Source: Candidatus Levyibacteriota bacterium
GTDB taxonomy: Bacteria > Patescibacteriota > Microgenomatia > Levybacterales > UBA12049
DNA: 64,000 nt
Direction: 5' to 3'
NCBI GenBank assembly: GCA_963790825.1
Contig: CAWBPM010000002.1
Coordinates: 295,159-359,158, forward strand
The position numbers and the translations under genes are program-made. This document shows positions 3,993-27,424 of this stretch, one piece after another (the first letter of the stretch is position 1; each line of letters opens with the position of its first letter). Under the pieces are notes generated by a model, which saw only the letters and a list, made by a program, of their open reading frames with translations, was not told the origin of the DNA and made no database searches.

Positions 3993-3998
3993 GGTGTT

Positions 3999-6940: not shown

Positions 6941-8235
6941 GCGTTAACGTACCTCCTTCGCCGTACTGCGTCATCGTCATCGGTTTGTTGTTGTTGTTGT
7001 TGCGACCCGGCATTTTCCCCCTTACGGCTTGTCATAGTATTAAGCATTTGTCCGCCCATATGGATTAAAGCACCCATTCGGGAGGTATAGAACATCATTT
7101 GGAATAACCAGGTGGGAATTTTAAGAAGGGTTAGAAATAGTCCTATGGCAATGACAATTGAGAGAAGTGAGCTGTCCGGATTATCGGGGATAGCCAGAAA
7201 GGAGGAAGCAAGTTGTATGACAACCACGTGCACAAAAATAATAAAGACGGTAACAAAGTATCCCTTAACCGCTGCCTCGGCAAAATCCGAGAACTTGGGG
7301 ACTGCCCACATGAGAAAGATAAAAGGAGAGAGGACGCCGGCCAGGACAACGAGAATAAGCCTGACAATATACATAAAAAGGAGGATAATTGCCACGATCA
7401 AAAAGATGATAAAAAAGATTAAAGTAATTATTGGTGTATGCCCGGTCAAAACACTCACAGGACTTATGGCATTGACCACCCATGCGTGGCTCAAACCCCC
7501 TGTTGTGTTAATCACCTCACTAACCAGTGCGTTGCAGGTGGTAATAACGTAGTCGCAAAGAAACAGGGAGACATTCGCGCCTAAAAATGCCAAACCGATA
7601 CGGGGAAGTAGGTGTTTAAGCTCTATCTCCTCAAAGCCAAAGGTTGAAGCCGACATAAAATGCAACCCTAAAAGAGCAACAACGAGAACAAATAACGAAT
7701 CAACAATTCCCAGGCTTACTGTCCAGAAGTGAAATACAACTGAGTTGCTAAGTAAACTTGGAGTTGTGGTTAGATAACCTATAATCGCATTCACAATTGG
7801 CTGTGTTGCGCTTTGCACTATGTTTTGCATCAGTCCTGTAATTGCGCTGATAAGAACCTGTGCAATGGCGCCCGTTGGACTTTGGGCTGCAATGGGAATC
7901 AAACTGGTTGCTAAGGAGGCAGCGGGTGAGACGGGGGCAATAAGGGCATTTTGCAAAAGAGAGACAACAACATTTGCCGAAAGAACAAGAGAAAGACCTA
8001 TGAGGGCATTTCTGATAGTTTTCCTGGCCTGCTCCAACGCTTCCGGATGGCCGGTTGAGGTGATGTATTGGTATCCTCCTTTAATTAAGAAGAGAATCGC
8101 TGATGCCGATGCTAAAAGAGTAAGAATCTGAAGGGTGTCACTTGTGTAGTTGGTAATGTCCGCTCCTGCCGCAAATACAGGCGGAACGACAAAAAGAAAG
8201 AGAGTAGCTCCATAAAGTAAGATCTTCTGCTTCAT
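6937..8235 (-). CDS. VirB6/TrbL-like polytopic membrane protein with an N-terminal pilin-like domain and a C-terminal polyQ/polyD tract
   Basis: 432 aa with more than six TM segments. Residues 1-110 (signal peptide plus two hydrophobic segments, GGYQYITSTGHPEALEQARKTIRNALIGLSLVL) are paralogous to the 113-aa pilin-like ORF upstream. C-terminus reads SQQQQQQTDDDD, encoded by a (ttg)6 repeat at 6985-7002. Confidence 0.45.
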   Translation of the reverse strand: MKQKILLYGATLFLFVVPPVFAAGADITNYTSDTLQILTLLASASAILFLIKGGYQYITSTGHPEALEQARKTIRNALIGLSLVLSANVVVSLLQNALIAPVSPAASLATSLIPIAAQSPTGAIAQVLISAITGLMQNIVQSATQPIVNAIIGYLTTTPSLLSNSVVFHFWTVSLGIVDSLFVLVVALLGLHFMSASTFGFEEIELKHLLPRIGLAFLGANVSLFLCDYVITTCNALVSEVINTTGGLSHAWVVNAISPVSVLTGHTPIITLIFFIIFLIVAIILLFMYIVRLILVVLAGVLSPFIFLMWAVPKFSDFAEAAVKGYFVTVFIIFVHVVVIQLASSFLAIPDNPDSSLLSIVIAIGLFLTLLKIPTWLFQMMFYTSRMGALIHMGGQMLNTMTSRKGENAGSQQQQQQTDDDDAVRRRRYVNA

Positions 8236-8247
8236 AACTTGTAATTC

Positions 8248-8589
8248 CTATTGACTTGCCTGCGCCGTACCGAATGCTGTCGTCGCAAGATCGGTTATAA
8301 TCGTTGATAATACAAACGCTCCCAAAACTATTGCCAGTCCGATTGCCGAGTAAAATATAGTTTTTTTGGACCGGTCTAACGATTCCGGATTACCGGATGA
8401 AGTGATATACCCCACTCCTCCCCAGACAAAAAAACCGGCTGCTACTAAACCTGCCAGTGTGACAAGAACCGAGATGATGCTTTGGATAAAGGTTTGAATC
8501 TTCGTAACGTCTGCTGAGGCGGCAAACGCCGGCGTCGCAGTTATAAGAGACGTAAGTACTAACGATGACAGAAAGATTAGTTTTCTCAT
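8248..8589 (-). CDS. VirB2/TrbC-like pilin candidate
   Basis: 113 aa with a signal peptide ending AFA-AS and two hydrophobic segments, the typical topology of conjugative pilins. Sits adjacent to the VirB6-like gene. Confidence 0.45.
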   Translation of the reverse strand: MRKLIFLSSLVLTSLITATPAFAASADVTKIQTFIQSIISVLVTLAGLVAAGFFVWGGVGYITSSGNPESLDRSKKTIFYSAIGLAIVLGAFVLSTIITDLATTAFGTAQASQ

Positions 8590-11266: not shown

Positions 11267-11482
11267 GCTAGACTGGCTAACCTAACAGTCAAAATGGACG
11301 AATAAAGAAAATGTAATTACGGATGGATGTATCCGGAATGTCGAAATTTGCATCCGGACATTTTTGTCAGGGGAACCTTGGTAAAGTAATCCCTGAAATC
11401 AAACTGTCTACCGCTGTTTTCAATAAATTCATTGATTTCGTATTTAATTTCCTAACTGATATATAATAACTAACAGACAAAG

Positions 11483-12172
11483 ATGACAAAGGAGCTTTTA
11501 ACATCCCATCCCAGAAGGATCAATTTGGAAGAGGTTGATAAGTCACTGACTAGAGTAGTTGTGCACTGGAAAAGAATTGATAACGAGTTAGATAGTATGA
11601 AAATCGGTAGAAAAGAGCCTCCCTTTACTATGCAAGTGAAAGACCAGATGATATCAGGTTATGTTCATTTAGATGACTTACTTTCCCAAGGTGTAAGACC
11701 ATTTTCAGATGAAAGTATCTCTGAAATGCTTAAATTTAACAACAGGATTCATTATGGTACGGATACACAATTAATGACAGAATATGACTCTGCAATCTCA
11801 GCCAATGCAGAAAGATATTACAAACGAATTAATCCTATCAAGGACTGGTATGCAGCACATGAAGTCAAAGGGCATCATCCGTATGAATTGGCTGCTGAAA
11901 TATACGTAGCGATTTTAGGACGTCCACAGTTGTTTATAGAAGGAAATCACAGGGCAGGGACTTTAATAGCCGATTACATCCATGCTTTTTTCGGACATCC
12001 GATATTTGTGCTTACAGTGAGAAATGCATTAGACTTTTTTGAACCGGCTGGTAAAATAAAACATTTTTATAAAGCATCCGCTTGGCAGAAGCTAAACCCG
12101 CCAGAGTATAAAAAACGGTTCGGAAAGTTCTGGAGAGAGCATATTGACCATAGGTACTTGTTGCCAGAATAA
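11483..12172 (+). CDS. Fic/Doc-fold domain protein with a degenerate active-site motif
   Basis: QLFIEGNHRAGTLIADYI aligns to the Fic motif HPFxDGNGRxxRLL, but the catalytic His is replaced by Gln and the second Gly by His. Confidence 0.3.
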   Translation: MTKELLTSHPRRINLEEVDKSLTRVVVHWKRIDNELDSMKIGRKEPPFTMQVKDQMISGYVHLDDLLSQGVRPFSDESISEMLKFNNRIHYGTDTQLMTEYDSAISANAERYYKRINPIKDWYAAHEVKGHHPYELAAEIYVAILGRPQLFIEGNHRAGTLIADYIHAFFGHPIFVLTVRNALDFFEPAGKIKHFYKASAWQKLNPPEYKKRFGKFWREHIDHRYLLPE

Positions 12173-12222
12173 TATACTTGAATTTATTGAAAAACAAAGT
12201 ATAATGCGAAACGGAATCTTAT

Positions 12223-12489
12223 ATGAGCCAAGAAAGAAAATGCGGGCAGTGTAGTTTTTTTGATCCAATGCAGGTAGACAAAACAACACCCTTCGGCGCA
12301 AAAAATTTAGATAATGGTCAGATAGTCCGAAAGGGTGTATGCAGAGTCAATAAAGGATTGCGTTTCGGAATATTGGATGAAACAAGAGATTGCAGACAGC
12401 AACCACCTCAGGAGCATTTTATTGCAATAAATAGTCGGCAGAAGGTAAATTCCTGTCCCACAAATCCATCATTGTCTACCTCAAACTAA
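12223..12489 (+). CDS. Small Cys-containing hypothetical protein (possible zinc-ribbon)
   Basis: CGQC...GVCRV spacing. 88 aa. Weak support only. Confidence 0.25.
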   Translation: MSQERKCGQCSFFDPMQVDKTTPFGAKNLDNGQIVRKGVCRVNKGLRFGILDETRDCRQQPPQEHFIAINSRQKVNSCPTNPSLSTSN

Positions 12490-12518
12490 CATGTAATAGC
12501 AGAGACTAATCTGAATAA

Positions 12519-12911
12519 TTATCTTTTGAAATGTTTGCGTGATTTTCTTAACCCATCTGTACCGTGAGTGTATTTTATAACTCCACGAAGTTGTCTCTTA
12601 CCCGATTCTTTATCTCTACGGAATACTGGATACATCATACCGTTTTTATCAAGGTCTATTTCTTTTACGATTCTTTCTTCCCCAGCCGTGTTCGGTTTTC
12701 TGACTCTATAGTATTTCCCTTTTCCATCGGGAAGAACATATAGAATATGGCGAGTCCTACTATCCTCTCCGGGGAAAAGGTCACGCATGTCCAGATCCAT
12801 TACCTCACTTGAATAGTTTCCGGCTTTAAGTAATTCATTGACTGCTAAATCGTCTGCCTGTTTATCAACTGTATCAATTGGTTGCTTTGCCCAAAAAAGT
12901 TCAATTGTCAT
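12519..12911 (-). CDS. Hypothetical protein
   Basis: 130-aa ORF with good coding appearance. Basic C-terminus. No recognisable motif. Confidence 0.4.
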   Translation of the reverse strand: MTIELFWAKQPIDTVDKQADDLAVNELLKAGNYSSEVMDLDMRDLFPGEDSRTRHILYVLPDGKGKYYRVRKPNTAGEERIVKEIDLDKNGMMYPVFRRDKESGKRQLRGVIKYTHGTDGLRKSRKHFKR

Positions 12912-13210
12912 GCCTGAGAGTATATCACATAACTTTAAATTACTAATTTATAACAAGTGTAGTTTACTACTTGATTTATTTTTTATTGAGTACTATCTTT
13001 ATTAACAAGACTTAAGAAAGTAATACTTTATCTTAGGTTGTTTGGTACAGATTGAACTTGACAGTCAATCTCTGCCTAAAAATCCCCGCATGTTTTAGAC
13101 AAAGCTCTTAAGTAAACAGAATATTATAGATTCTAAAAAGGTTTCGGGGCAGCCGGTATTATTTAGCTATACAAAGAATAGCATTAAGAATCCTAATATT
13201 TTCTAGTTTA

Positions 13211-13612
13211 TTAATTAATTTCTTGAAATAGACAAGTTTCTCCGTTGGCAAGACCAAGTATCCCGACATGAATAAAAAATTGTTTCCAATTATTTCCTAA
13301 GGCAATTCCTAAGTTTTCTTCTCCCTTGAATTTATCACAGCGGTAAGTTTTTATTTCGCTATTATACGAAATAACAAGCTTATAATCGTGATTATATTTA
13401 TTTAAATAACTTAAAGTTTGTATATCTCCGTCTCTTTTGTAAGTTGTTAAATCTGGTTCATACACTACTGACCCCATTTCTCTTTTTCCTTCCTGGTTTA
13501 TTCTGTACATTGCAACGAAAACATTGTAGGAAAATACGTTTAGTTCCGGTCTGTCTTCTATAGCCAAGGGTCTTGGTATAAAAGAATATAGGGAACCATT
13601 TTTTATATCCAT
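13211..13612 (-). CDS. Hypothetical protein, tandem paralog A (immunity-protein-like family)
   Basis: 133 aa. About 40% identical to the adjacent 13651-14073 product. Shared motifs ERPELNVF, YDPDL(T/S)TYK, DYKL(V/I)IS(Y/F)N and WK(Q/R)FF(I/L)HVG(I/L)LG(L/F)A(N/K)GET. Confidence 0.5.
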   Translation of the reverse strand: MDIKNGSLYSFIPRPLAIEDRPELNVFSYNVFVAMYRINQEGKREMGSVVYEPDLTTYKRDGDIQTLSYLNKYNHDYKLVISYNSEIKTYRCDKFKGEENLGIALGNNWKQFFIHVGILGLANGETCLFQEIN

Positions 13613-13650
13613 AATATTTCATCCCCCTCCACCTTAAAGATTTAAGACCT

Positions 13651-14073
13651 TTAGTTTGTTTGTTTAATTTCATCAAACAAATAGGTTTCTCCTTTTGCAA
13701 AACCCAGTAACCCGACATGTAGAAAAAATCGTTTCCAATCATTCTCCCCGTCAGCACAGCCTACAATTTTATCCTTATTGTATTTAGCGCAACTGTAAGT
13801 ATTCTTAACGGCATTAAAAGAAATAATAAGTTTATAGTCCTGATTGAAAATATTTTTATAACTTAAACTTTTAATATCACCGTTATCTTTATAAGTAGAT
13901 AAGTCGGGATCGTAAAAGACTGAACACACAACCATTTTTCCTTCCTCATTTAATCCGTGAGATGAAACAAATACATTAAAAGGGAAAACATTAAGCTCAG
14001 GTCTTTCTTTTATCTCTAAACGGGTTGGCAAAAAAACAAACAAAGAATCTTTATCGATACTTATCATACCCAC
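13651..14073 (-). CDS. Hypothetical protein, tandem paralog B
   Basis: See 13211-13612. AT-rich pair. Confidence 0.5.
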   Translation of the reverse strand: MGMISIDKDSLFVFLPTRLEIKERPELNVFPFNVFVSSHGLNEEGKMVVCSVFYDPDLSTYKDNGDIKSLSYKNIFNQDYKLIISFNAVKNTYSCAKYNKDKIVGCADGENDWKRFFLHVGLLGFAKGETYLFDEIKQTN

Positions 14074-14445
14074 CTCCTTTCCAACAAAAAACCTCTCCTG
14101 AAAGAGAGGTATAATACAAAAAAATTGTTTACCAAATTTTCTTGGTCAAATCCGTCCCTTTCCAAGGGCTGGGTTTGGCACCGCTTAATAATTACCGGTT
14201 GCCGGGTGGGTCACTGAGCCAGAACTCTCGCCACCGCTCTTGATTAATTGTTAAGCCTATTAAATAACTTTTTAAAGGCTTTGTCAATAATTCAATACTA
14301 AGGAGTTGTTTAGGCTCTTCTAGGCAAGAGTCAAGCATTCTTTATTCTCAGTCAGTTAGTTGAACTCGCGGAATCGGTAAATGTCCAAAACAGCGAGACT
14401 AATTTTAATGCTTTTTGTAAAGCTTTCCCTTCTCCTTGTCCCAAA

Positions 14446-14476
14446 TAAAGCCCTTTTTAGCCGCGTGGACAATTCT
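14446..14476. repeat. ~31-nt direct repeat flanking the abrB-doc module (copy 1)
   Basis: taaagccctttttagccgcgtggacaattct matches acaaagccatatttagccacgtggacaatctt at 15214-15246. Confidence 0.5.
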
Positions 14477-14499
14477 TTGTGTCCAATACAAAGAGAATA

Positions 14500-14892
14500 T
14501 TAGTTAATTCTTCTTGAGTTATTCATAATCCAATTACATATCTCCTCTATACCTATCTTTTTCGTTATAATTTCCAGAATGAATTTTTCTAATTCATTTT
14601 GAGATACCGTCAACTCAAACCCATTTTGTGCCAAAAAAATAATCATACTCACTGTTCCTGTACGCTTATTACCATCTATAAATGCATGGTTATTAACTAG
14701 CGAATATAGTAAGGCTGAAGCTTTTTCGAAAACAGAAGGATATAAATCTAGACCTGAGAAGGTTGTTTGAGGTCTAAATACTGCAGATTCAATTAAGGCT
14801 AGATCCCTTATTCCATGTGAACCACCATATCTATCAATTTGGTCCTCATGGATTAGAATAATTTGCTCAAGTGTTAAGTAAACAATATCCAC
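14500..14892 (-). CDS. doc: Doc (death-on-curing) family toxin, Fic-fold kinase
   Basis: Canonical Doc motif HAFIDGNKRTG. 130 aa. Immediately downstream of an AbrB-type antitoxin gene. Confidence 0.85.
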   Translation of the reverse strand: MDIVYLTLEQIILIHEDQIDRYGGSHGIRDLALIESAVFRPQTTFSGLDLYPSVFEKASALLYSLVNNHAFIDGNKRTGTVSMIIFLAQNGFELTVSQNELEKFILEIITKKIGIEEICNWIMNNSRRIN

Positions 14893-14897
14893 ATTTT

Positions 14898-15146
14898 CTA
14901 CTTTAGGGCAAGTTTTCTTAATGCATCCCCGTAGTGTTCGTTAACCTTTTTAAGTAAATCCAGAAATTCAGGAGTTAAAGAAGAACGTACTTGCTTCTCC
15001 CCCTTTTTACGAATAACCAATGATTTTGTTTGCGGATCTGTTTCGATAATAACTTGAGTTCCTGTTTCAAAACCGGTTTGCTCTAATAGCAGTTTTGGAA
15101 TAATAACTCCAGTTGAATTTCCAACTTGAATAATTTTTTGCTCCAT
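14898..15146 (-). CDS. AbrB/MazE/SpoVT-type antitoxin (Phd-equivalent partner of Doc)
   Basis: VGNSTGVIIPK swapped-hairpin signature. 82 aa. 5-nt gap to doc. Confidence 0.75.
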   Translation of the reverse strand: MEQKIIQVGNSTGVIIPKLLLEQTGFETGTQVIIETDPQTKSLVIRKKGEKQVRSSLTPEFLDLLKKVNEHYGDALRKLALK

Positions 15147-15147
15147 A

Positions 15148-15184
15148 GTTATAACATGTTATAACATATTTGGATACTTGTCAA
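15148..15184 (-). promoter_or_regulatory. Putative abrB-doc promoter and operator (two abutting palindromic GTTATAAC boxes overlapping the -10)
   Basis: gttataacatgttataac at 15148-15165, two bases from the start codon. TTGACA on the minus strand at 15179-15184, 15-17 nt upstream of TATAAC. Confidence 0.4.
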
Positions 15185-15213
15185 GAACCAGTATTGTAGC
15201 CCGACTTGTCATA

Positions 15214-15246
15214 AACAAAGCCATATTTAGCCACGTGGACAATCTT
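15214..15246. repeat. ~31-nt direct repeat flanking the abrB-doc module (copy 2)
   Basis: See 14446-14476. Confidence 0.5.
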
Positions 15247-15303
15247 CATGTTCAAAACGGAGAAGGGGATATAGATTCTAAAAAGGTTTCGGGGCAGCCG
15301 GTA

Positions 15304-15474
15304 TTATTTTCTTCTTCCTCTACCGCCGATATGACCGGCTTTCCGGGCTTCCTCAGAGGTAAATTCATGCGCTCTGCCAAGTCTGTGTGCTTCCTTACCA
15401 CCGCTTCGGGCTATTCGGCGCTGCCTGTCTTTATCCATTGAGCCAAAACCCCTCCGTTTAGTATTATTAGTCAT
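15304..15474 (-). CDS. KGG-repeat general stress protein (YciG-like)
   Basis: MTNNTKRRGFGSMDKDRQRRIARSGGKEAH...GHIGGRGRRK matches the KGG stress-induced family. The ORF-track start at 15525 is probably too far upstream. The 3-prime end overlaps the 38-nt repeat at 15272-15309. Confidence 0.55.
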   Translation of the reverse strand: MTNNTKRRGFGSMDKDRQRRIARSGGKEAHRLGRAHEFTSEEARKAGHIGGRGRRK

Positions 15475-15563
15475 AACTCTCACTATAAAGTTATCACGAA
15501 AAAAGTGCAAGTCCAAATATTCCAAACATGAATCATGACTGATCGCAGGGTAATTTAATACTA

Positions 15564-15603
15564 GGAGACCCTTCGTCTCCTCTGCGCAAGGGTCAAGATG
15601 AAC
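15564..15603. repeat. Inter-cassette element E1 (GC hairpin GGAGAC-N5-GTCTCC plus box GCAAGGGTCAAGATGAAC)
   Basis: Member of a mosaic family with copies at 14312-14340, 16372-16411, 17057-17110, 18358-18385, 18501-18536, 19251-19299 and 20056-20091. Confidence 0.6.
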
Positions 15604-15660
15604 TTAAGCTATCCACGAATGAATAAACTGTTACTTTAAATATTTACTCTAGGAGTATAA

Positions 15661-16311
15661 TTATTTCGTTTTCTCGTTTAGAATTTGTGAGATAACTTGT
15701 TGAGGGTCAGGAGTTTGCGGGTCTCGTTGAAAGCCCCATTTTCTATTAGTTTTTGTATAACCATGTCTATAGTACCAATGCGTTAGCTCTGAATCATCCA
15801 TTCCTCCATCACGAGCTGATGGATTGAGATATACTCTCAAGTTTTTGCTATCTGCTAAAGCATTTAGATTATCTAATAAGAAACTGCCTAACCCTCTGGC
15901 ACTTTTATATCCATATTCTTGAGGGAGCATACTTGTCATTGTGCGAATATATGTAAGATAAAGGGCCTTCTCCTTGCCATCTTCTTCTTCAATACTACCA
16001 AAATCTACTGATGCGACCGCATTTGGATCACGCAGTTGTTCTTCTATATGGCCAAATATTGAAGAACTCAAATCTCCAGACATTATCAATTCCCGCATTC
16101 TTACAGCTTGTTCTTGCCAATTGGGTACTCTCAATACCCATAATAATCTACCTATATGGGGGGGTAATTCTCCTTCAAATATATAAGGTAATCCCTTAAT
16201 AGCTACTTCTCTGGTAAATTTTAATGGTTCCGCACTTACAGCCTCATTGGCTGTTGGGAATTCATTTACTGATTCTTCCGACTTTGAAGGTAGTTCGCTT
16301 CGTAGATCCAT
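15661..16311 (-). CDS. GNAT-like N-acetyltransferase domain protein (possible GNAT toxin). Low confidence.
   Basis: C-terminal half contains ARGLGSFLLD, resembling GNAT motif A (R/Q-x-x-G-x-G/A). 216 aa. No obvious partner antitoxin. Confidence 0.35.
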   Translation of the reverse strand: MDLRSELPSKSEESVNEFPTANEAVSAEPLKFTREVAIKGLPYIFEGELPPHIGRLLWVLRVPNWQEQAVRMRELIMSGDLSSSIFGHIEEQLRDPNAVASVDFGSIEEEDGKEKALYLTYIRTMTSMLPQEYGYKSARGLGSFLLDNLNALADSKNLRVYLNPSARDGGMDDSELTHWYYRHGYTKTNRKWGFQRDPQTPDPQQVISQILNEKTK

Positions 16312-16371
16312 AAAACGAGTATACCAAAATTCGTTGTATCTTTCATTTAATTAAAAACAGTGCCAATATAA

Positions 16372-16411
16372 GGAGCCCCTTCGGCTCCTCTTTTCAAAGG
16401 TCAAGATGAAC
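16372..16411. repeat. Inter-cassette element E2 (hairpin GGAGCC-N5-GGCTCC plus TCTTTTCAAAGGTCAAGATGAAC)
   Basis: See E1. Confidence 0.6.
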
Positions 16412-16483
16412 GTGTATTTGTTTAAAATACGATTTGGCAATAGTTTAGCAAAGAGCAGTATTTAGTAAATTGGGTTATATAAA

Positions 16484-17011
16484 TTATTTGCCTGTAGGTT
16501 TGGATACTGAATCCTGAAGTTTGGCAATTGCAGCTCTCATTATAAGATGAGGCCTAGTGGAATATTGCTCTTCTAATCTATTTTCAATCTCTTCATCTGG
16601 AACTGAATGCTCCAATCCCCAGCCAGAAAATGTAATGTCCACCTCGAAATTGAATACTTGCTTAAGTCTCTCAGGCATTTTGGGATACTCATAATGCTTC
16701 ACACTCCAAGTATCTGAAATAACATCGCTTCCATTCATATTACATTCAGTATGACGGATAGTCTGCGATTGAGGGGTATACCACTGTGAGAGTTGACTGA
16801 GAGCTAGTTCATTACCAGTATCTCCTAATAACTCAATTGCGTGTAGTTGGCTTTCTATCTTTCGTTCTTTTCGGGAAAGCTTCCTAGTGATTCCGTTCCA
16901 GATAATTTTACCTTGTCCAATACGTATAAGATCTTGGACTTCTTGTGGAGCCGCAGTAAATTCCGGGTCTTCTTTATGAAATATTCTGCCAATTCTTTCA
17001 ACTAATGGCAT
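16484..17011 (-). CDS. Hypothetical protein
   Basis: 175-aa ORF with good coding appearance. No motif recognised. Confidence 0.4.
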   Translation of the reverse strand: MPLVERIGRIFHKEDPEFTAAPQEVQDLIRIGQGKIIWNGITRKLSRKERKIESQLHAIELLGDTGNELALSQLSQWYTPQSQTIRHTECNMNGSDVISDTWSVKHYEYPKMPERLKQVFNFEVDITFSGWGLEHSVPDEEIENRLEEQYSTRPHLIMRAAIAKLQDSVSKPTGK

Positions 17012-17244
17012 ATTTGATAGGAATATACTCCTTATGAGGCTGGCTTGTCAAATATACCGGCTATAAAAAGGGCTTAGCCCCTCTTCCGCAAGGGTTTCCG
17101 GCTTTGCTTCCAATAAATTAGGGCTTTCAGCCCGTCACCCTTGCATTATTCACCCCCTCTTTTGCTTCGCACATATCAGAAAGCAGGCCGCAGGCTGCTT
17201 TCTGGAATATATATTTTCCAAATATGAACAGCCGGAAGGGGGTG

Positions 17245-17350
17245 AAACACAAAAATATGCAATTACTTACAAAACAGTTACGGGAAACTATCCAGCCGTT
17301 ATATTCCACAGAGACGGAAGCCGATCCGGATGTGAAGTGTAAATTTTTTC
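17245..17350 (+). pseudogene. Truncated paralog (5-prime fragment) of the DUF2958 gene at 20213-20524
   Basis: Translates to MQLLTKQLRETIQPLYSTETEADPDVKCKFFLPG, against MNKQMMLLTKQLTQRLPKLYEQENNTDPMVICKFFLP. Preceded by the same ~55-nt hairpin-containing leader (17171-17228 versus 20140-20197). The reading frame terminates after ~35 codons. Confidence 0.4.
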
Positions 17351-17500
17351 TTCCCGGAAGAATTATTGAGAGGGATCAATAGGGAAGAATAATAAGCTTG
17401 CAGGTGACTCAAGTAGAGTTTTAATATAGAATAGATATTTCAGATGTACATTATGTACCTTATTGACAAAACGTAATAAATGGTATATAATAGCTGCATT

Positions 17501-17800
17501 ATGACAAGTATATCTACTATTAATGTTACCAAGGCCCGGGATAACTTGGCTGAAATATTGGGGAGAGTAAGATTTGGTGAAGAAACAATCACAATAGAAA
17601 AAAAAGGGAAACCTTACGCAGTAATCATAAGCCCTAAAGAGCTTAAAAGATATCAAGAAATAGCTAAAAAGGCATTTTCTACTACTGTGGCTAGCATTCG
17701 AGCAAAAAATACTGCTGTAAATGAAAATGAACTTATGGAAGATGTAACTAAAGCTGTTGAAGAAACTCGACAAGAACGATATGAACAACGAGGAAAATAA
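17501..17800 (+). CDS. Phd/YefM-family antitoxin
   Basis: TINVTKARDNLAEILGRV...ITIEKKGKPYAVIISPKELKRYQE is the Phd/YefM fold signature. Precedes and overlaps a PIN-domain gene. Confidence 0.7.
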   Translation: MTSISTINVTKARDNLAEILGRVRFGEETITIEKKGKPYAVIISPKELKRYQEIAKKAFSTTVASIRAKNTAVNENELMEDVTKAVEETRQERYEQRGK

Positions 17801-18236
17801 TCTTCCAAGAGTTACCATTGACACAAACCTTGTTATTAGCGGTACTATTTCTCCAAACAGTGTTCCAAGCCAACTTATCACATTCTGGATTAACGGCGGC
17901 TTCAACTGGATTCAAACTCAAGAAACGTTTAACGAAATAAAAGAAGTATTTACCAGAAAAAATATAAAAATGAAATATCATCTAAATCCTAAAGAAATAC
18001 AAGCGTTTCTTGATAATTTATCTATAGGAGCAGAATTCGTAAAACCAATTCCAATAGAATCTCTTCCAATTCATTCTCGAGACGCAAAAGATAATATTTT
18101 ACTATCTTGTACGTTAGGTGGGAATTGCGATTTTCTTATTACTGGTGATGAGGATTTATTAGTCCTTAATGGAGAGAAAAAGTTGGGAAAGTTACAAATT
18201 ATAAAAGTAGTTGACTTTTTGCAAAGAAAAAAATAA
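17757..18236 (+). CDS. PIN-domain ribonuclease toxin (VapC-like)
   Basis: N-terminal VTIDTNLVISG and C-terminal CDFLITGDEDLL are the acidic motifs of the PIN fold. The start may be the internal Met at 17781. Confidence 0.65.
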   Translation: MKKLDKNDMNNEENNLPRVTIDTNLVISGTISPNSVPSQLITFWINGGFNWIQTQETFNEIKEVFTRKNIKMKYHLNPKEIQAFLDNLSIGAEFVKPIPIESLPIHSRDAKDNILLSCTLGGNCDFLITGDEDLLVLNGEKKLGKLQIIKVVDFLQRKK

Positions 18237-18561
18237 GTCAGAGTTTCCTTTCCTTCCAAGTACTGGATGCTTCAATACGAATCCTAATCATTATACGAAC
18301 CAGAGGTAATCAAAAATATAAAACACATATAAAAACGTCTTCGGTTTTTCTATGACTTGGGTTTCCGGCTTCGCCTCCAATGAATTCTTTAGTAATTAAA
18401 ATAATTTTATTGGGAATAGCAATCTATATCATCTGGTTATTATCCGGGATATTCTTCTAATCACATTATATATCTTTCATAACCCATACAACCATAGAAG
18501 GGGCTTAGCCCCTCTAATGCAAGGGTTTCCGGCTTACACGGTCTTCAAAATACACTCACTT

Positions 18562-18924
18562 TCAAGATTGATCTTCGGGGGTCTCATATCGATTGGGTTT
18601 ACCGCGTGTAGGCTCCGGGGTATATCCACCATATAAACCTGACTGCTTTGCTCTCTCTGTCATAATCCTTGCACCGGTTGATTCAATCATTCGGTCTAAT
18701 TGTTCTTTTGTATAAGATCCCAAGTAATAATCAACGTGGCCTGCGCTTGAAAGGTAACCAGGACCATGTTCATGTTCTTCTTGGCATTTTGCAGGGGTGG
18801 GGGTTTCCTGACGAATTGTTTGATGAAAGACGGATCTAAAACGTTCTTTAATTCCTCCCAATATTCCAAATGACCCTGACTCTTTGCCCATACGTATATT
18901 ATACGCCTGATGGTCAAATTTCAT
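18562..18924 (-). CDS. Hypothetical protein
   Basis: 120-aa ORF. The neighbouring 18972-19199 ORF shares a GHV...Y..G(Y/S)T stretch and may be a truncated paralog. Confidence 0.3.
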   Translation of the reverse strand: MKFDHQAYNIRMGKESGSFGILGGIKERFRSVFHQTIRQETPTPAKCQEEHEHGPGYLSSAGHVDYYLGSYTKEQLDRMIESTGARIMTERAKQSGLYGGYTPEPTRGKPNRYETPEDQS

Positions 18925-19377
18925 TAAGAAGGGGATGCTTATGGGGATTGGTTTTTTATTTAAAGATAAATTTAACTTTGTTCTGAAGGATTACTGTCAT
19001 TTGATTGGTTATCTGTATAGCCTAGTCTGTATAAATCACCCCTAACGTGGCCTGGTCCACTATAATTTGAAGGTGAATATCCGCTATATTGATTACGCGG
19101 GCTAGGAGGTGTATATTTTGTTTCTGCCTTAAATGCCAGGTAAAATAAATGTCTAACTTTCCCAATAACCCTTTGGAACATCGGTGATTCTTTACTCACA
19201 ACTGTATTATACTCCCGGGAGTCAAATTTTTTAAAGTCACAAACGAGTATTCTCCTCTAAAAACCCATTCAGTTTCTCTGCACAAGAATCAAGATGAATA
19301 TCCTTTTTATCAACAATTTTGTGCAGACAATTATTTGTTTAGTTTTGCTAATCAGTTGGCTAAGTATAATAATTGAA

Positions 19378-19947
19378 TTATTTTGTAGTTGCAGGGACAA
19401 GTGGATGTCTAAAAATAGTCTCTGCGTTTAACATGTGCCCCGCAGGCGTTCTGCCTGTCAGATACATTCTTACAGTTTCCGGCCAATCTATTCTTTTGGG
19501 GAAACGTGAATCGTCAACTTTGTCGAAAAAGTGAGTATAACGTTTTGCGAGATTTGGATGTAACCGAGTGGGTAAGTAACTTAATCCTGAAGTTACCTTG
19601 ATAGTATCATCATATTGGTAAGCGGCTATACCTCTCATCTTAGTTTCTAGATCAACAAGATTACCTGATTCATCGCACTGGACCACCATATCAACCAGTC
19701 TGGTAGAAAATCCAAACACTTGACTTTTTCCCCATTTAATTCCTGGTCGAATTCTAACATTTAGCTCATATAATCCATTACCTCTGCCATATTTACGAGA
19801 GTATGCTTCAAGTAAAAATTCCCCTTGTTGGGTGTAATACAGGTGAGGATCTTCAAAAGTACCCATAGAAGTACTTTCTGCTTGAAGATCTACGTAATTA
19901 AATGACTCTCTTAATCTAGGCATAAATATCTGGGTATTATAGCACAT
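19378..19947 (-). CDS. Hypothetical protein
   Basis: 189-aa ORF with good coding appearance. No motif recognised. Confidence 0.45.
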   Translation of the reverse strand: MCYNTQIFMPRLRESFNYVDLQAESTSMGTFEDPHLYYTQQGEFLLEAYSRKYGRGNGLYELNVRIRPGIKWGKSQVFGFSTRLVDMVVQCDESGNLVDLETKMRGIAAYQYDDTIKVTSGLSYLPTRLHPNLAKRYTHFFDKVDDSRFPKRIDWPETVRMYLTGRTPAGHMLNAETIFRHPLVPATTK

Positions 19948-20147
19948 CTTAATTCAAAGTGATTGGGCTGGGGTGATAGGTACCAGTTGAGGAGTTAATG
20001 TAGAAGCATACTCCAATGGTGTTTTGTAGTCAAGGGCTTGTACCGGCTATAAAAAGGGCTGCGCCCCTCTTTTGCAAGGGTCGAGATAAACGAAGTCGTT
20101 GCTTCGCCCTTGCAAAATTCACCTTGCATATTAGTCTTCGGATATCA

Positions 20148-20171
20148 GAAAGCAGGCCGCAGGCTGCTTTC
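20148..20171 (+). promoter_or_regulatory. Perfect 8-bp-stem hairpin (GAAAGCAG-N8-CTGCTTTC) in the DUF2958 gene leader. An identical copy lies at 17179-17202.
   Basis: Seen directly in the sequence. Followed by an AT-rich stretch and the start codon ~40 nt downstream. Function could be promoter, operator or terminator. Confidence 0.4.
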
Positions 20172-20212
20172 TGGAATATATATTTTCCAAAAATATTAAC
20201 AGCTGAACGGAG

Positions 20213-20524
20213 GTGAATAAACAAATGATGCTACTTACTAAACAATTGACACAGAGACTACCAAAGCTATATGAGCAGGAAAACAATACTGATCCGATGG
20301 TTATCTGTAAGTTCTTTTTACCGATGACCAAATGGACTTGGTACGCCATAGAATTTGACGGAAAAGATACGTTTTTTGGCTACGTTGTCGGAGATTATCC
20401 GGAGCTTGGTTACTTTACTCTGTCAGAGCTAAAAGATATTGAGGGCCCATACGGGCTAAAGGTTGAGCGGGATATGTATTTCGACCCTCAACCGCTCTCA
20501 AAGATACAAGCGGGGGAAAGATAA
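20213..20524 (+). CDS. DUF2958-family protein (commonly carried on conjugative elements)
   Basis: 103 aa. KFFLPMTKWTWYAIEFDGKDTFFGYVVGDYPELGYFTLSEL resembles the DUF2958 family seen on plasmids and ICEs (from memory, not a search). Confidence 0.5.
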   Translation: MNKQMMLLTKQLTQRLPKLYEQENNTDPMVICKFFLPMTKWTWYAIEFDGKDTFFGYVVGDYPELGYFTLSELKDIEGPYGLKVERDMYFDPQPLSKIQAGER

Positions 20525-20581
20525 AGAAAAGTCTCTGCCGCCGGAACTGCCACCGGCGGCAGATCCTGCCCGCCTACCCAG

Positions 20582-21382
20582 TTATTCTACTTTTTCCCAA
20601 ACATCAGGGGTTTTAGCATTAAGTATTCTCTCATTCCAGGATAAATATAGAGGGAATGGTTCATCAAATTGTTTTTCAAATAGTGCTTTTGCAAAGTAAT
20701 ACAGGTGTTTCTTTAACTTTTCTCTTGGGCAAATAAATAAAACTGCGGGGAACGCTTGCCCGTTTGCGTTGTCCTCCCAATTACCTCCCTCAACATATTG
20801 CATGTATGTTAATATCCGTGAACGAAGTATTCCGGCAGAAGCATAGTCTCTGAATAATTCAAGGAAATATCTTCTGGTTTTCTCTTTTGTTTTTACTGAT
20901 ATATAAGCACTTGGCAGGGGAGTAGGAAAATACTCATATTGCAGCAATTGGCTTTCAGTAAAAAAACGGATCTCTTCATCTTTTTTCTTCTTTGCTAAAA
21001 AGAAAAGATAAACATCTGCTAAGTCTAGACAGTAAGAAATAAAACTTTCTGTCCGACTCTTTTCTTTGTACACTTTACCCAGTGCTTCAACGTCGCAGTC
21101 CTTTTCCTGTTTTAGGATTTGTATTCCTTTAGTACCCAGAAAATAGACAGCCGGCTTTGTCCGGTTTTTAAATGAATCAGGCAGATAATATCTGTGAATA
21201 TACTTATTATCTTTTAAGTCTTTAAGCCAGAGTTGTATTCTTTTGGGGTTTTTATGATTGAATAATATTTGCAGTTGGTTAGTATTTAGGAATCTGAATT
21301 TATATATATATTTTAATATTTGTTTTTCTTTGCCGGTTATTTTAACTTCTGTTTTGTTCTCTGTTTTTATTATTTTTTTCAT
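20582..21382 (-). CDS. Replication-relaxation (Replic_Relax, PF13814-like) family wHTH protein
   Basis: N-terminal EKQILKYIYKFRFLNTNQLQILF matches the wHTH start typical of Replic_Relax proteins. Lies immediately downstream of the VirD4-like gene, as in Gram-positive conjugative elements. Confidence 0.45.
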   Translation of the reverse strand: MKKIIKTENKTEVKITGKEKQILKYIYKFRFLNTNQLQILFNHKNPKRIQLWLKDLKDNKYIHRYYLPDSFKNRTKPAVYFLGTKGIQILKQEKDCDVEALGKVYKEKSRTESFISYCLDLADVYLFFLAKKKKDEEIRFFTESQLLQYEYFPTPLPSAYISVKTKEKTRRYFLELFRDYASAGILRSRILTYMQYVEGGNWEDNANGQAFPAVLFICPREKLKKHLYYFAKALFEKQFDEPFPLYLSWNERILNAKTPDVWEKVE

Positions 21383-21490: not shown

Positions 21491-24196
21491 CTATTTTATC
21501 TGCTTCGTATCATCGGGAAGTGACCCTGTTATTTTATTTTTTGTCTCCGTAGTTTCTTTCTGTCTTGCTGCTTGCTGCTCTTTATTGACCGGTTTTTTCA
21601 GGTAGACAATTGCCCAGTTATTTCTCGAAGATGCAATGAGTTTCTCCATCTTTTTACTATCTCTTTTGACGGGCATATAGATTGTCTCACCGGAAAAAGG
21701 TTCTTCGGATTCTATGGCTGAAATTTTAATATAGAATCTGTAACGGGGAAGACTCATTATTTCGCCCTTTACTAAGTAGGGCGCAAACTGGTTAAGCATT
21801 AAATCTTCATCAATATAATTGCCGGACCGGAATGAGATAACTGTGGTAACGTTTGCCAGGATAATATTGGTAACATCCCTGTCTTTTTGCTGGGAGGTTG
21901 ACTGCTCGGCAATAATTAAAGGCATCCTGTACTTTCTGCCCTCTGTTATCATTTTTGTAAATGACTGGGTTGCAAAATTTTGGAATTCGTCAACATATAC
22001 ATAAAATGTTTTCCTCTTGCTCTCCGGTATATATGCTCTTTTTAATGCAGCTTGCTGGAGTTTGGTCATGATTGTTGTTCCCATGAGCCGTGAGGAGTCT
22101 TCACCTAATTTTTGTGAGAAATTACAAATGAGAATTTTACCGCCGTTTATAATTTCATCAAAATTAATAGTGGATTTCTCCTGTTCTAAAATTCTTTTAG
22201 CAGTAGGAGAGCGGAGAAACCTTCCAACCTTGGCTGTAATCCCCTGAGTCATTTTTACTATCTGATAATCTCCGGCTTTGCCGAATTCATATTTCCAGAA
22301 ATCTACTAAATCCTCATCCGTCAGTTTTGACACAACCTGTTTGCGAAAGGTAGGATTAGTCATGATTTTATTGATGGTAAATAATGTTGCGCCCGGTACA
22401 GTAAACGCTGTGTAAATAGTATTTCTTAAAATATATTCAATTCTGTGAGCATTAGTACTCTCATCTTTTGAAAATACTTTTCTGAAAAGCGACACTACAC
22501 CTTCTGCAACTACCTCTTTTTCCAGCTCCGCTTCGTCTTCATCGAGTCCGGGTGTCAACTCCATGACGTTTATTCCGATCGGATACTTTAAGTCTATCGG
22601 GTTAATATATATGAGATCGTCTTTCCGGCTTGTCGGAATAGAAGCCACTAAATCTTCTGCTACATCTCCATGCGGATCAATAAATGCTAAACCGCGGCCT
22701 TCTTCAATATCATGTTTTGCCATGGAAAACATTAAGGTAGTTTTACCTGAACCGGTTCGGCCTAAAATATACATATGCGTTTGCCGCTCTTCTTCGGTTA
22801 ATCCGATCGGCGTTGTTACTCCCGCATAATTATTTTCTCCAAAAACAGTATCCAGCTCCGTACCGTTTTTTAGTGTTATTGGGGCGGGTAATTCTTTTGA
22901 ATGTGCTTTTACAATGTTTTCCGTTTGCGTAACATACTTAAAAGGAAAATGATATAGGTCTGCTATCTCAGACGCGGAATATAATGAGGAACTTGCATTG
23001 TTAATTAAAGATAACATTCGTTTTCGAAACACAAATAGTTGTACCCGATCCGAGACATATGGAATTCCATATGTTTTGAAGAAGGACTGATATTTAGGAA
23101 CGTTATACATAGCAAGGGAGGAATGAAAACCTTTAACCCTCTGTGCAACTTCAGACTTTTCCTTCATAACAACTAGTAACCTGATTGATCCTTCAAACAA
23201 CTCCTGATCAATTTTTGTTTTGATTGACTGGATCACTTCCTGCTCAAAGCTACTTAGTATCCTAGCCGGCCGAAGGTGCTGCATTTGTATAACTTGCTGA
23301 TACTGGTATTGCCCGGAAATATGTATCGACTGTGTGTTTGAATGCATCAGCTCAGTTATTGCCCACTGCAGATTATTTCCGATTGCCAATATCATTTTAA
23401 GTAATACTTTTAGAAGGAATAACAATATTTTTACAACTAAAGGTGCTCGGGGTTTACTTAAATACCTTAGTATATCTTCATTGTTGAGGATCATCTGAGA
23501 AAGAATATCCGCTTCTTTGATTTTGGTTCCGGAAACTACTACTTGCAAAGAGATTAATTCTCCGGGTTTTAACTGCGTCATCATACCGGTGATATACGCA
23601 ACCGGATCATGTTCCTGCAGAGTGGATTGTTTTTGCAGAGGAAAAGCAAAATGTTTTCTTAATTGAAACCCGGCAACTTTTATATGCAATTTATTATTAG
23701 TTTTATCAACAGTGGGAATATATTCACTAGTTGTTTTCACCAGGACATGGGGAAGGTAGGAGAGAATCTCCCGTTTTATGTTCTCTTTTTCTTCCGGTGT
23801 TGTCCTGACAATGAAACGGATTCCCAGCTCTCTGCTTGAAACAATTTCGAAAGAAAGAATCGTTTTCCTGCCCAGTAATTTATCTGTAAACGAATCCCGC
23901 TTTGATAAGCCGTGTATCATTGAAAAAAATTCCTGCGTGGTATATGCAGACTTTTCGCTTATTGTCGGAGGGGTAATTTCAAGCAGAACCGATTCTTCAT
24001 TCATTAGTTTTCTGAAATTGAAATACCAGCGGGCAATTAGTATTACCAGCACACATACGACAAGAAAAAGAATAAAAGGAAAGGATGAGAAAGGAGAGTG
24101 ATGAGCAAAGTTAATAAACTCATCTTTTAAATGAGGAAGAGAGGCAGTTAACCGGCTAAGTATATATCCAGCTTCCCAATGATGCCAGTCATTCAT
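21491..24196 (-). CDS. virD4: Type IV coupling protein (VirD4/TraG/TraD family) with a long N-terminal membrane-anchored extension
   Basis: Walker A ILGRTGSGKTTLMF, Walker B FYVYVDEFQNFAT and an N-terminal TM helix. 901 aa. Confidence 0.8.
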   Translation of the reverse strand: MNDWHHWEAGYILSRLTASLPHLKDEFINFAHHSPFSSFPFILFLVVCVLVILIARWYFNFRKLMNEESVLLEITPPTISEKSAYTTQEFFSMIHGLSKRDSFTDKLLGRKTILSFEIVSSRELGIRFIVRTTPEEKENIKREILSYLPHVLVKTTSEYIPTVDKTNNKLHIKVAGFQLRKHFAFPLQKQSTLQEHDPVAYITGMMTQLKPGELISLQVVVSGTKIKEADILSQMILNNEDILRYLSKPRAPLVVKILLFLLKVLLKMILAIGNNLQWAITELMHSNTQSIHISGQYQYQQVIQMQHLRPARILSSFEQEVIQSIKTKIDQELFEGSIRLLVVMKEKSEVAQRVKGFHSSLAMYNVPKYQSFFKTYGIPYVSDRVQLFVFRKRMLSLINNASSSLYSASEIADLYHFPFKYVTQTENIVKAHSKELPAPITLKNGTELDTVFGENNYAGVTTPIGLTEEERQTHMYILGRTGSGKTTLMFSMAKHDIEEGRGLAFIDPHGDVAEDLVASIPTSRKDDLIYINPIDLKYPIGINVMELTPGLDEDEAELEKEVVAEGVVSLFRKVFSKDESTNAHRIEYILRNTIYTAFTVPGATLFTINKIMTNPTFRKQVVSKLTDEDLVDFWKYEFGKAGDYQIVKMTQGITAKVGRFLRSPTAKRILEQEKSTINFDEIINGGKILICNFSQKLGEDSSRLMGTTIMTKLQQAALKRAYIPESKRKTFYVYVDEFQNFATQSFTKMITEGRKYRMPLIIAEQSTSQQKDRDVTNIILANVTTVISFRSGNYIDEDLMLNQFAPYLVKGEIMSLPRYRFYIKISAIESEEPFSGETIYMPVKRDSKKMEKLIASSRNNWAIVYLKKPVNKEQQAARQKETTETKNKITGSLPDDTKQIK

Positions 24197-24382
24197 ATAC
24201 TCTCGGGCAGAAACACCTAAGAGCAGAAGTTAGCTTGAGTTATAGCACAGTTTAGGAAAAAAGTAAAAAATAGGAAACACTGAATGTCTAAAACATCGAA
24301 ACTTTATGCACGAATAAGATGTTAATAATAATCGATATTCAATGTAAGGATAGAGAGTAAAGACATTCTGCATTTCTAGACG

Positions 24383-26022: not shown

Positions 26023-26026
26023 ATAT

Positions 26027-27102: not shown

Positions 27103-27130
27103 TTTTTAGGAATTAATATATATTGATAGT

Positions 27131-27412: not shown

Positions 27413-27424
27413 AATTTATTATAT

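Follow-up and report, generated by a model that had tools for sequence, protein, structure and literature searches.

In the present study, we analysed a stretch of 64,000 nucleotides (64 kb, hereafter the window) from a Candidatus Levyibacteriota bacterium (assembly GCA_963790825.1, contig CAWBPM010000002.1, positions 295,159 to 359,158), with attention to a hairpin element that is repeated in it. The window from position 1 to about 29.8 kb is a conjugative element, in which an array of small cargo genes lies between the genes of a type IV secretion system (T4SS) and those of a relaxase and a coupling protein. A preliminary description, made from the sequence alone, had seen in this array a set of cassette-like genes separated by hairpin-and-box units. 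We found that these units are all copies of one non-coding element, which is conserved, strand-specific and folded; two of the copies are whole and about six are cut down. The element heads the first gene of establishment or anti-defence type adjoining the operon of MOBC relaxase and coupling protein. The features are listed below by their positions in the window; R1 is a covariance model built from family-1 relatives only.

3384..8589, minus strand: T4SS genes for an M23 peptidase, a VirB4-like ATPase, PrgI, TrbL/pilin and a VirB2 pilin (Pfam)
11483..19947, both strands: variable cargo slot with Doc/AbrB, KGG, Phd/PIN, a module with an S-adenosylmethionine (SAM) riboswitch, and orphans (Pfam, PHROG, NCBIfam)
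17063..17256, plus strand: complete element, copy A, with the long box variant TTCCGGCTTTGCTTCCAATAAATT (R1 43 bits, E 1.4e-9)
17257..17382, plus strand: DUF2958 stump of 42 codons behind copy A, interrupted by the phd-PIN module
17463-17491: sigma-70-like promoter for phd, 12/12 (promoter scan)
20049..20217, plus strand: complete element, copy B (R1 79.8 bits, E 1.8e-19)
20225..20524, plus strand: intact DUF2958 gene behind copy B (Pfam PF11171, E 5e-18)
20582..21382, minus strand: MOBC-family relaxase (Replic_Relax, PF13814, E 1.7e-10), converging on DUF2958
21491..24196, minus strand: VirD4-type coupling protein (TraG-D_C and TrwB_AAD_bind domains)

The complete element is about 170 nt long, and copies A and B can be aligned for about 190 nt (80% identity in 242 alignment columns, 98% in the P4 region). 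It begins with the hairpin P1 and continues with CTCT, the hairpin P2 (NNN-GCAAGGGT / GCCCTTGCA-NNN), TTCACC(Y)YC, about 20 nt, the hairpin P4, an A-rich stretch, AAAGGAGGTGA and ATG. P2 encloses a conserved bulge of 9-11 nt, the box, together with a variable inner hairpin, P3. Among the relatives, the bulge reads CAAGATGAAC, AAAATGCAC, AAATACAC, TATATAAAC or, in a long version, TTCCGG...CCAATAAA; the variant of copy A is also found in the related loci L064 and L140. Copy B is 85-95% identical to many metagenome contigs over about 65 nt, and the DUF2958 stump behind copy A is 57.6% identical to the intact DUF2958 over 33 aa. The parts of both copies, all on the plus strand, are placed as follows.

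20056-20066: copy B, P1 hairpin
20067-20070: copy B, CTCT
20070-20081: copy B, P2 5' arm TTTTGCAAGGGT
20082-20091: copy B, box CGAGATAAAC
20091-20106: copy B, P3 hairpin
20106-20117: copy B, P2 3' arm GCCCTTGCAAAA
20118-20123: copy B, TTCACC
20146-20173: copy B, P4 hairpin
20209-20217: copy B, Shine-Dalgarno (SD) sequence GGAGGTGAA
17070-17081: copy A, P1
17088-17095 and 17137-17144: copy A, P2 arms
17121-17133: copy A, P3
17149-17154: copy A, TTCACC
17177-17204: copy A, P4

All eight hairpin-and-box copies reported earlier are present at the same positions and on the plus strand, as sequence reading and the repeat search agree. They lie at 14.3-20.1 kb, and the rest of the window has none, which does not fit the suggestion that they are ordinary terminators found throughout the genome. 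The repeat search placed them in family D1 (15557/16365/19253, 47 nt), family D3 (17063/18494/20049, 42 nt) and family D10 (17092/18359). In a scan that allowed up to 3 mismatches and was compared with 100 shuffles, two box variants had 3 matches each, confined to 15.5-20.1 kb, and 0 of the 100 shuffles reached three. A covariance model, which the preliminary description had proposed as a check, gave the same picture: R1 found the two complete copies as strong matches in the 64 kb, partial matches of 8.6-16.6 bits at the short copies, and on the sense strand of the rest of the window nothing with E below 1. The earlier inventory is right in its positions, but the copies at 17063 and 20049 extend about 130 nt further, into the DUF2958 frames, with a second P2 arm, TTCACC, the strong hairpin P4 and an SD. 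Likewise, the copy at 19253 exists but its diverged, complete hairpin had been missed, and the one at 14312 exists only as a degenerate remnant. The reading of 'AAGGGTCAAG-ATG-AAC' as a ribosome-binding site plus start codon has to be abandoned, as the box is the bulge of a conserved hairpin in the complete copies; there the true SD GGAGGTGAA and ATG lie about 130 nt downstream of the box, and in many family members the box has no ATG (TAAATACAC, TATATAAAC). The box as a -10 element or as ribosome-binding site plus ATG was rejected, since no consistent hexamer or ATG is found among the variants and the spacing to -35-like sequences is wrong. The short copies, all on the plus strand, are the following.

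14312..14340: degenerate remnant ..TCTAGGCAAGAGTCAAG, broken before CATTC (sequence reading)
15557..15603: 5'-only copy with P1 GGAGACCCTTCGTCTCC, then CTCTGCGCAAGGGT, then box CAAGATGAAC (D1, exact box match)
16365..16411: 5'-only copy with P1 GGAGCCCCTTCGGCTCC (D1, 83% identity, R1 11.3 bits)
18332..18386: diverged partial copy with weak hairpin AAAACGTCTTCGGTTTT, ..GGGT and long box TTCCGGCTTCGCCTCCAATGAATT (D10)
18494..18535: 5'-only copy with the TTCCGGCTT box variant (D3, 88% identity, exact 17-nt match, R1 16.6 bits)
19253..19330: diverged copy with the P2-like hairpin GCACAAGAAT / ATTTTGTGC round the box CAAGATGAAT (D1, 64% identity, inverted repeat I9)

Five of them keep no more than P1, one P2 arm and the box, and one of these five, the 14312 remnant, is without even P1. 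In the 15557 copy, similarity stops after the box, and its R1 score is low (8.6 bits) because the 3' half is missing. The 18332 copy is 89% identical to 17092-17119, its box matching with 3 mismatches, and the 19253 copy has no TTCACC, P4 or gene. A strongly hydrophobic ORF (open reading frame) of 26 codons, MNSLVIKIILLGIAIYIIWLLSGIFF, lies at 18380-18460 on the plus strand with its ATG inside the CCAATGAATT box of the partial copy; it may encode a peptide of the type I toxin kind or have arisen by chance.

The complete element was found on more than 60 metagenome and metagenome-assembled genome (MAG) contigs in total, including Ca. Levyibacteriota and other MAGs, and its closest relatives are those in Levyibacteriota. 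A pattern scan of metagenome contigs, with the two P2 arms as query, recovered more than 55 distinct complete relatives. The complete element always stands upstream of a small gene typical of plasmid leading regions. Directly behind it, DUF2958 was found in 15 copies (13 other loci and both window copies), and other loci have genes for ArdC-like proteins, N6_N4 or N6 DNA methylases, DUF6573-like proteins, zinc-ribbon proteins or unknown small proteins; these are classes of genes reported to be enriched in plasmid leading regions (PMC11541004). The order of element and small gene, followed by converging MOBC relaxase and coupling-protein genes, is kept in about eleven metagenome loci and also in Ca. 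Levyibacteriota and other MAGs, and proteins 45-73% identical to the coupling protein adjoin the element in L020, L080, L141 and L142.

Furthermore, the core of P2, box and P3 is common to two further subfamilies, on which R1 scores about 16-37 bits. In Christensenellaceae and other Clostridia, the core either precedes a DUF4313-ArdA-methylase operon or is flanked by a rolling-circle replication (RCR) Rep-like gene and a serine recombinase gene. In the Vibrio sinensis/plasmid subfamily, blastn found it in 537 PLSDB plasmids (Klebsiella 216, Escherichia 73 and Vibrio 52, among others), just upstream of an ardC or DUF3560 gene in every inspected record; among these are backbones of the IncR type (umuDC-ardC-nuc-mobC) and pES100, a MOBP plasmid with two copies. 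The leader of family 1 had no PLSDB match by blastn, where only the Vibrio/enterobacterial subfamily is found. A scan of viral contigs for the element gave no match, a search of genome contigs for loci related by relaxase gave no confirmed relative, and PDB sequence searches with DUF2958 and the relaxase gave none. In three loci of the Clostridia/Christensenellaceae type (L117 2201-4635, L091 and L054), the core sits within a longer outer stem, AAACGGAAACGC / GCGTTTCCGTTT, between the RCR Rep-like gene (REP_ORF2-G2P) and a large serine recombinase gene, an arrangement that resembles a small integrative mobilizable element beside tRNA genes. In A. fischeri pES100 (L175), the cores at 12080-12125 and 15373-15401 precede a radC-containing operon and ardC, one each, with a hok/sok locus nearby; the core on the radC side has lost the usual box and keeps P2 by a compensatory change of G-C to A-T.

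As to the fold itself, P2 is paired in 97.8% of cells (74 sequences). At its two variable pairs, 46 double changes (UA/AU/GC/CG) were counted, which none of 500 shuffles reached, and its eight invariant pairs are uninformative. In more distant members these eight pairs do change, and in a compensatory manner, as on pES100 (TACAAGGG/CCCTTGTA) and on an E. coli plasmid (arms CAGCAAGGG/CCCTTGCTG), and P3 and P4 keep their hairpin throughout many differing sequences. Against shuffles, the mean z-scores were -4.4 for P2-P3, -2.45 for P4 and -1.1 for P1. The whole leader of copy B folds as RNA at -60.3 kcal/mol (z -4.97), and as DNA of the minus strand its z-score is -4.79. P2 is closed by U.G in 72 of 74 sequences and by U-A in the remaining 2, so that pairing at this position is confined to the plus strand, and this argues for folding of the sense strand. 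The strand tests by minimum free energy (MFE) and by counts of G.T versus A.C contradict each other, as P1 favours the minus strand and P2 the plus strand, and these tests are therefore not decisive. No Rfam 15 family matched, at the gathering score or with E up to 10, in the window, 12 related loci and the E. coli and Vibrio versions, and a literature search with strings of the element returned nothing relevant.

Taken as a whole, these data are best explained, with a probability that we put at about one half, by a conserved element with a leader function and a relic array at a cargo hotspot. As to the function by itself, the odds appear to us evenly balanced that the complete element is an mRNA leader hiding the ribosome-binding site. 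It is always on the same strand as the downstream ORF and at a set distance from it. TTCACC stands 3 nt past P2 in 54 of 54 sequences of alignment A3 (TCACC in one copy), an SD of the type GG(A/G)GGTGA precedes the start codon in nearly every complete leader with a downstream ORF, and the GGTGA motif before the start codon was found in 54 distinct leaders. The MFE fold pairs TTCACCUUG with CGGAGGUGAA, closing the P4 domain. In such a leader, TTCACCYYC would imitate the 3' tail of 16S rRNA, pair with the perfect SD and close a domain around P4. The invariant P2/box module, directly 5' of it, would serve as a sensor or bind a protein and so determine whether the anti-SD is available. Known SD-sequestering leaders (riboswitch expression platforms, RNA thermometers and the hok mRNA fold) have in common with the element a structured sense-strand 5' region at a fixed distance from the start codon, and an SD-complementary pyrimidine box with an adjoining conserved sensor-like hairpin. 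The element differs from them in that it has no Rfam family match or known ligand and that its downstream genes are unrelated except for their role in mobile elements.

Several observations weigh against this explanation. No covariation was found between the bases after TTCACC and those before GGTGA (135 of 2000 permutations were as good), and because of this the anti-SD pairing rests on constant complementarity only. No sigma-70-like promoter of the plus strand was predicted upstream of P1 in either window copy. In some loci of subfamily 2, a promoter-like sequence was seen by eye downstream of the hairpin, and the hairpin would therefore be outside the mRNA there. The search pattern itself, through ascertainment, accounts for part of the near-invariance of GCAAGGGT/CCCTTGCA, and on the minus strand both P1 and, by MFE, the whole element are slightly more stable (47/57). 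As regards the array, the recombination mechanism is read from break points only, and the short copies are well conserved, so that they could have a function of their own instead of being relics.

The cargo slot lies behind a gene for an NHL surface protein, which separates it from the T4SS genes, and 10 of its 15 genes are on the minus strand. Pfam agrees with the earlier gene calls Fic/Doc, MazE/AbrB-type antitoxin, KGG, Phd and PIN_3, and the tandem paralogs are borne out by an 80-nt repeat (D2) and the translations. The 216-aa protein once called GNAT-like has no Pfam, PHROG or NCBIfam match, and the same holds for eight other cargo proteins; a 189-aa cargo protein is an ORFan. The view of this region as a variable, cassette-like cargo array within a mobile element is supported by the relative L140, whose VirB4, TrbL and pilin are 79%, 60% and 71% identical to those of the window and which has the same arrangement of element, DUF2958 and MOBC relaxase. 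Between its pilin gene and P1, L140 has a single AbiEii-like gene where the window has the NHL gene and about 15 genes, and thus the slot is variable. The only homologues of the 216-aa protein (L169-L173) are in Peptidase_S51 operons of other genomes with no R1 match. In Patescibacteria MAGs, the module of SAM riboswitch and tandem paralogs lies in the chromosome, beside an ABC transporter gene and without the element (the L177 riboswitch scores 68 bits; L176 and L177 have no R1 match). Since the chromosomal homologues of these two cargo modules lack the element, it belongs, as far as the two modules show, with the site rather than with the cassettes.

The break points of the short copies always fall between the two P2 arms, though not at a single nucleotide. 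The break comes after CAAG in the 14312 remnant and, at the same point, in a copy of L066 (GCAAGGGTCAAG, broken before CGTTTCC), and after GATGAA(C/T) in the window copies 15557, 16365 and 19253 and in L066; other breaks come after P3 (L089), after TTCCGGCTT (18494) and after CCAATGAATT (18386). Similar arrays exist in relatives. In L066, a complete copy is preceded by two 5'-only copies, and a reverse transcriptase gene and orphan genes lie between them. In L089/L125, one copy ends after TTCACC and is followed by an opposite-strand AbiE module, and the other ends after P3 and is followed by an opposite-strand VapBC module; L064, too, has 5'-only copies next to toxin-antitoxin (TA) or other modules. 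These patterns suggest that the slot between the T4SS genes and the element may be a cargo hotspot, in which repeated recombination with other elements or chromosomal DNA would have broken the element between the P2 arms. Hairpin-provoked breakage or template switching during single-strand transfer or replication may have been the cause. Each event would have left the 5' half beside a newly gained module, mostly in opposite orientation, and one event would have left a whole leader and a DUF2958 stump. Because this leader and stump (17063-17382) are followed by phd-PIN with its own 12/12 promoter, at least one event appears to have duplicated the entire unit. In the simplest reading, the short copies are recombination relics of which P1 was kept as terminator or insulator, the retained P1 hairpins being placed between a converging stop codon and the next sigma-70-like promoter, where they may serve as such. 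Of the options listed in the preliminary description, remnants of a duplicated 5' untranslated region was thus essentially right, and bidirectional terminators suits the P1 part of the unit.

Other short repeats bracket modules of the slot as well:

13125..13164 and 15270..15309, plus strand: 40-nt perfect direct repeat (D7)
14435..14473 and 15205..15243, plus strand: 39-nt direct repeat, 85% identical (D4), bracketing abrB-doc

Both pairs had been noticed before and are real. The 40-nt pair brackets the riboswitch module and abrB-doc, and its partner at 15270 overlaps the KGG stop codon. Nested in this way, the two pairs resemble target or att duplications of two successive insertions; their sequence is unrelated to the hairpin element.

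The surroundings of the short copies also admit that they are plain intrinsic (bidirectional) terminators, or terminator-plus-operator units, rather than relics, possibly giving the cargo mRNA a 3' end antisense to the leader; we consider this improbable. The right-hand gene converges on the box of each short copy, its stop codon being 27-160 nt off, and P1 is the first hairpin past the converging minus-strand stop, at 27-79 nt, in the copies 15557, 16365, 18494 and 19253. Sigma-70-like promoters of the minus strand lie 10-45 nt beyond P1 in all copies except 18494 and 14312, and P1 precedes the predicted promoter of the next gene at 16365, 17063, 19253 and 20049. The promoter scan of the minus strand gave TTGACA-18-TATATT at 17051, TTTAAA-18-TATAAT at 19235, TTGACT-17-TATGCT at 20033 and an additional site at 16346; the promoter of the KGG gene, TTGCAC-17-TATAGT, was read by eye. 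The folding energy of the P1 hairpins is -6 to -12 kcal/mol, and a short T-rich tail is present on one strand or on both; on the minus strand the copies 17063 and 20049 read GGGGC..GCCC and then TTTTTAT. A compensatory pair distinguishes the P1 hairpin of 15557 from that of 16365, which suggests either selection on the hairpin or different donor elements, and the 25-nt cores are nearly intact among unrelated flanks. However, the terminator scan called no P1, because the T-tracts are weak in most copies, and P1 has a z-score of only -1.1. In a plain terminator the conserved box and P2 arm would be without a role, and the units are missing from the other 54 kb of the window.

For the complete element, a single-stranded DNA (ssDNA) promoter or priming site of the Frpo/ssi kind was weighed as well, and we regard it as rather unlikely, though less so than the terminators. 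In this case the transferred minus strand, the template of DUF2958, would fold into P1-P4, and host RNA polymerase would transcribe the establishment gene, and perhaps prime the complementary strand, before the DNA is double-stranded; the short copies would again be relics. Leading regions with ssDNA promoters have the same position, the same anti-restriction, methylase and TA genes, and several hairpins per region (PMC11541004, PMC12672017). The putative origin of transfer (oriT) of MOBC systems of the CloDF13/pMET1 type is upstream of the relaxase/coupling-protein operon (PMC2262945); DUF2958 and ardC point to this operon, and so toward oriT if it is placed as in CloDF13/pMET1, like the leading genes of F. 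The minus-strand DNA fold (z -4.79) is on average more stable than that of the plus strand, the two copies of pES100 each head an operon, and the conservation of sequence across phyla would fit recognition by a universal enzyme. On the other hand, no -35/-10 pair with workable spacing was seen by eye in the stems of the candidate phyla radiation (CPR), Vibrio and E. coli versions, and the consensus scan found no plus-strand promoter site at the elements. R1 found nothing in the F leading region (E up to 0.8), and the absence of the family-1 leader from the blastn matches in PLSDB points the same way. The closing T.G of P2 on the plus strand is an A.C mismatch on the minus strand in 72 of 74 sequences, and the TTCACC / GGTGAA complementarity is naturally meaningful only in RNA.

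A recombination site, with the P2/box hairpin cut by the MOBC relaxase or an unknown enzyme and the cargo joined at the box, would make the array an integrase-free cassette system; of the explanations weighed here we hold it the least probable. It would account for the clustering of breaks in the box/P3 region (CAAG twice, GATGAA(C/T) four times), for the single orientation of all copies and for the position of the most degenerate remnant (14312) farthest from the relaxase, though the decay along the array is not monotonic. A hairpin with a bulge and a variable tip is also like a folded attC, and the box with the 3' arm loosely resembles the MOBQ nic core TAAGTGCGCCCT (PMC3832669, PMC10333310). 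Yet the breaks are at differing positions, also after P3, TTCCGGCTT and CCAATGAATT, and no right-hand halves remain. The core is found on MOBP (pES100) and RCR-Rep/serine-recombinase elements too, always heading genes, and is therefore not tied to one enzyme; moreover, the putative oriT of MOBC plasmids is elsewhere, cargo homologues occur elsewhere without the site, and no recombinase was found in the window. The element was also considered as oriT of the MOBC relaxase and rejected, in view of its presence on MOBP (pES100) and Rep/serine-recombinase elements, its tandem copies, the SD link and the putative oriT of pMET1/CloDF13 upstream of mobB. A MOBQ-type oriT was discarded likewise, as the partial resemblance TAAAGTGCAC..CGCCCTT is split by P3 and the relaxase here is MOBC. 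The region upstream of the coupling-protein gene, where an oriT was sought, gave nothing convincing.

The earlier comparison with integrons is understandable from the layout, as both arrays have short promoter-poor or orphan genes, including TA pairs, and a single-orientation hairpin repeat between genes. It was not upheld. No ORF of at least 90 aa in the window has a recombinase or integrase Pfam match, IntI included, the short copies are unfoldable without their second arm, and no attC cores (RYYYAAC/GTTRRRY) occur in the array sequence. The element remains at its site and does not follow the gene, and the cargo genes have their own promoters. With no recombinase, incomplete sites and a site that does not travel with the cassettes, the analogy fails on all three features, and integron/attC was rejected. 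In T4-type phages, PeSL (promoter-early stem-loop) cassettes reportedly consist of stem-loops that flank small orphan genes and anchor recombinational shuffling, the PeSL being described as a phage early promoter plus terminator in double-stranded DNA. The hyperplastic region with small orphan genes is alike in the two cases, whereas PeSL has no link to conjugation and no sequence relation to the element.

Closer parallels are found in the leading regions of plasmids. Frpo/ssi of IncF and IncI1 (PMC11541004, PMC12672017) are large conserved hairpins, several per element and in one orientation, as here. Near the transfer genes, they immediately precede genes of the anti-restriction, methylase, ssb or psiB type, with small variable genes between, and the complete copies of our element are likewise upstream of and co-oriented with DUF2958, ArdC-like, methylase or ArdA genes. 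The element differs from Frpo/ssi in having no sequence or covariance-model similarity to them and no recognisable -35/-10 in its stems, in the wobble evidence for sense-strand folding and the anti-SD/SD pairing, and in a family that spans CPR, Clostridia and Gammaproteobacteria. According to PMC6294495, which cites Delver and Belogurov 1997, the CUP (conserved upstream) repeats of the IncN pKM101 leading region and the establishment genes of pLS20 and p576 have repeated upstream non-coding sequences, so that one conserved non-coding sequence stands before establishment transcription units and gives a cassette-like look, as here. CUP and Reg576 are described as double-stranded promoter/operator regions before each unit, whereas in the window a gene follows just two of the copies, the remaining ones being 5' stumps that face the 3' ends of opposite-strand genes; this comparison is one of descriptions and not of sequences. 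The element is best classed among the control elements, repeated and conserved, of conjugative establishment regions; its P2/box module is conserved across phyla and absent from Rfam.

Some further features of the locus are worth recording. PF13814 is the MobC relaxase superfamily (PMC5357655), and MobC relaxases have a PD-(D/E)XK fold and are usually paired with VirD4 (PMC5357655, PMC3424549). Between the stop codons of DUF2958 and the relaxase gene, a near-perfect GC-rich inverted repeat at 20534-20563 has an 11-pair stem (9 G-C); the scan called it terminator-like on the minus strand only, and that it acts bidirectionally is a guess. Past the coupling-protein gene, a second accessory region (24200-29900) carries two BrnT/CopG pairs, a PLD-family nuclease and a helix-turn-helix protein, and its end is near a tRNA-Arg gene (29836-29909), a possible integration site. 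The window also has a sortase gene. In the cargo slot, the SAM riboswitch (RF00162, 49.7 bits) at 14145-14249 on the minus strand heads two tandem paralogs on the same strand (13651-14073 and 13211-13612), which may be related to SAM or methionine. The 229-aa cargo protein at 11483-12172 on the plus strand has no family match, and FIEGNHRAGTLIADY in it is reminiscent, by eye, of a degenerate Fic motif. The only other assemblies of the locus, the Logan contigs L001 (20317-31115) and L168 (15290-20009), have the same sequence. These short-read contigs come from the same sample and end exactly at the repeated leader and the 40-nt repeat, and therefore such arrays are systematically fragmented in short-read assemblies.

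Overall, it is possible, and we suggest it only tentatively, that the P2/box hairpin and its flanks represent an undescribed class of single-strand-folded control element in Patescibacteria, Clostridia, Vibrio and enterobacterial plasmids. Its role would be to set the timing of anti-defence and establishment genes once conjugation has brought them into the cell, as a riboregulator or a new class of ssDNA promoter, and it would also be a preferred break-and-join point for cargo. If this is true, cargo transcripts could receive from the retained 5' halves a 3' end that is antisense to the leader present in resident or incoming elements. The array shows how a conserved element can become a hotspot for TA and orphan genes, and why short-read assemblies break there. 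Only for a few plasmids of enterobacteria (Frpo/ssi, CUP, Reg576) is it understood how anti-restriction and other establishment genes are turned on right after entry. A hairpin module that stands before ardC, ardA, orphan methylase and DUF2958 genes in very distant bacteria, including about 500 clinical IncR-type plasmids and CPR elements, would be a testable handle on the control of establishment genes and a marker for leading regions and new anti-defence genes.

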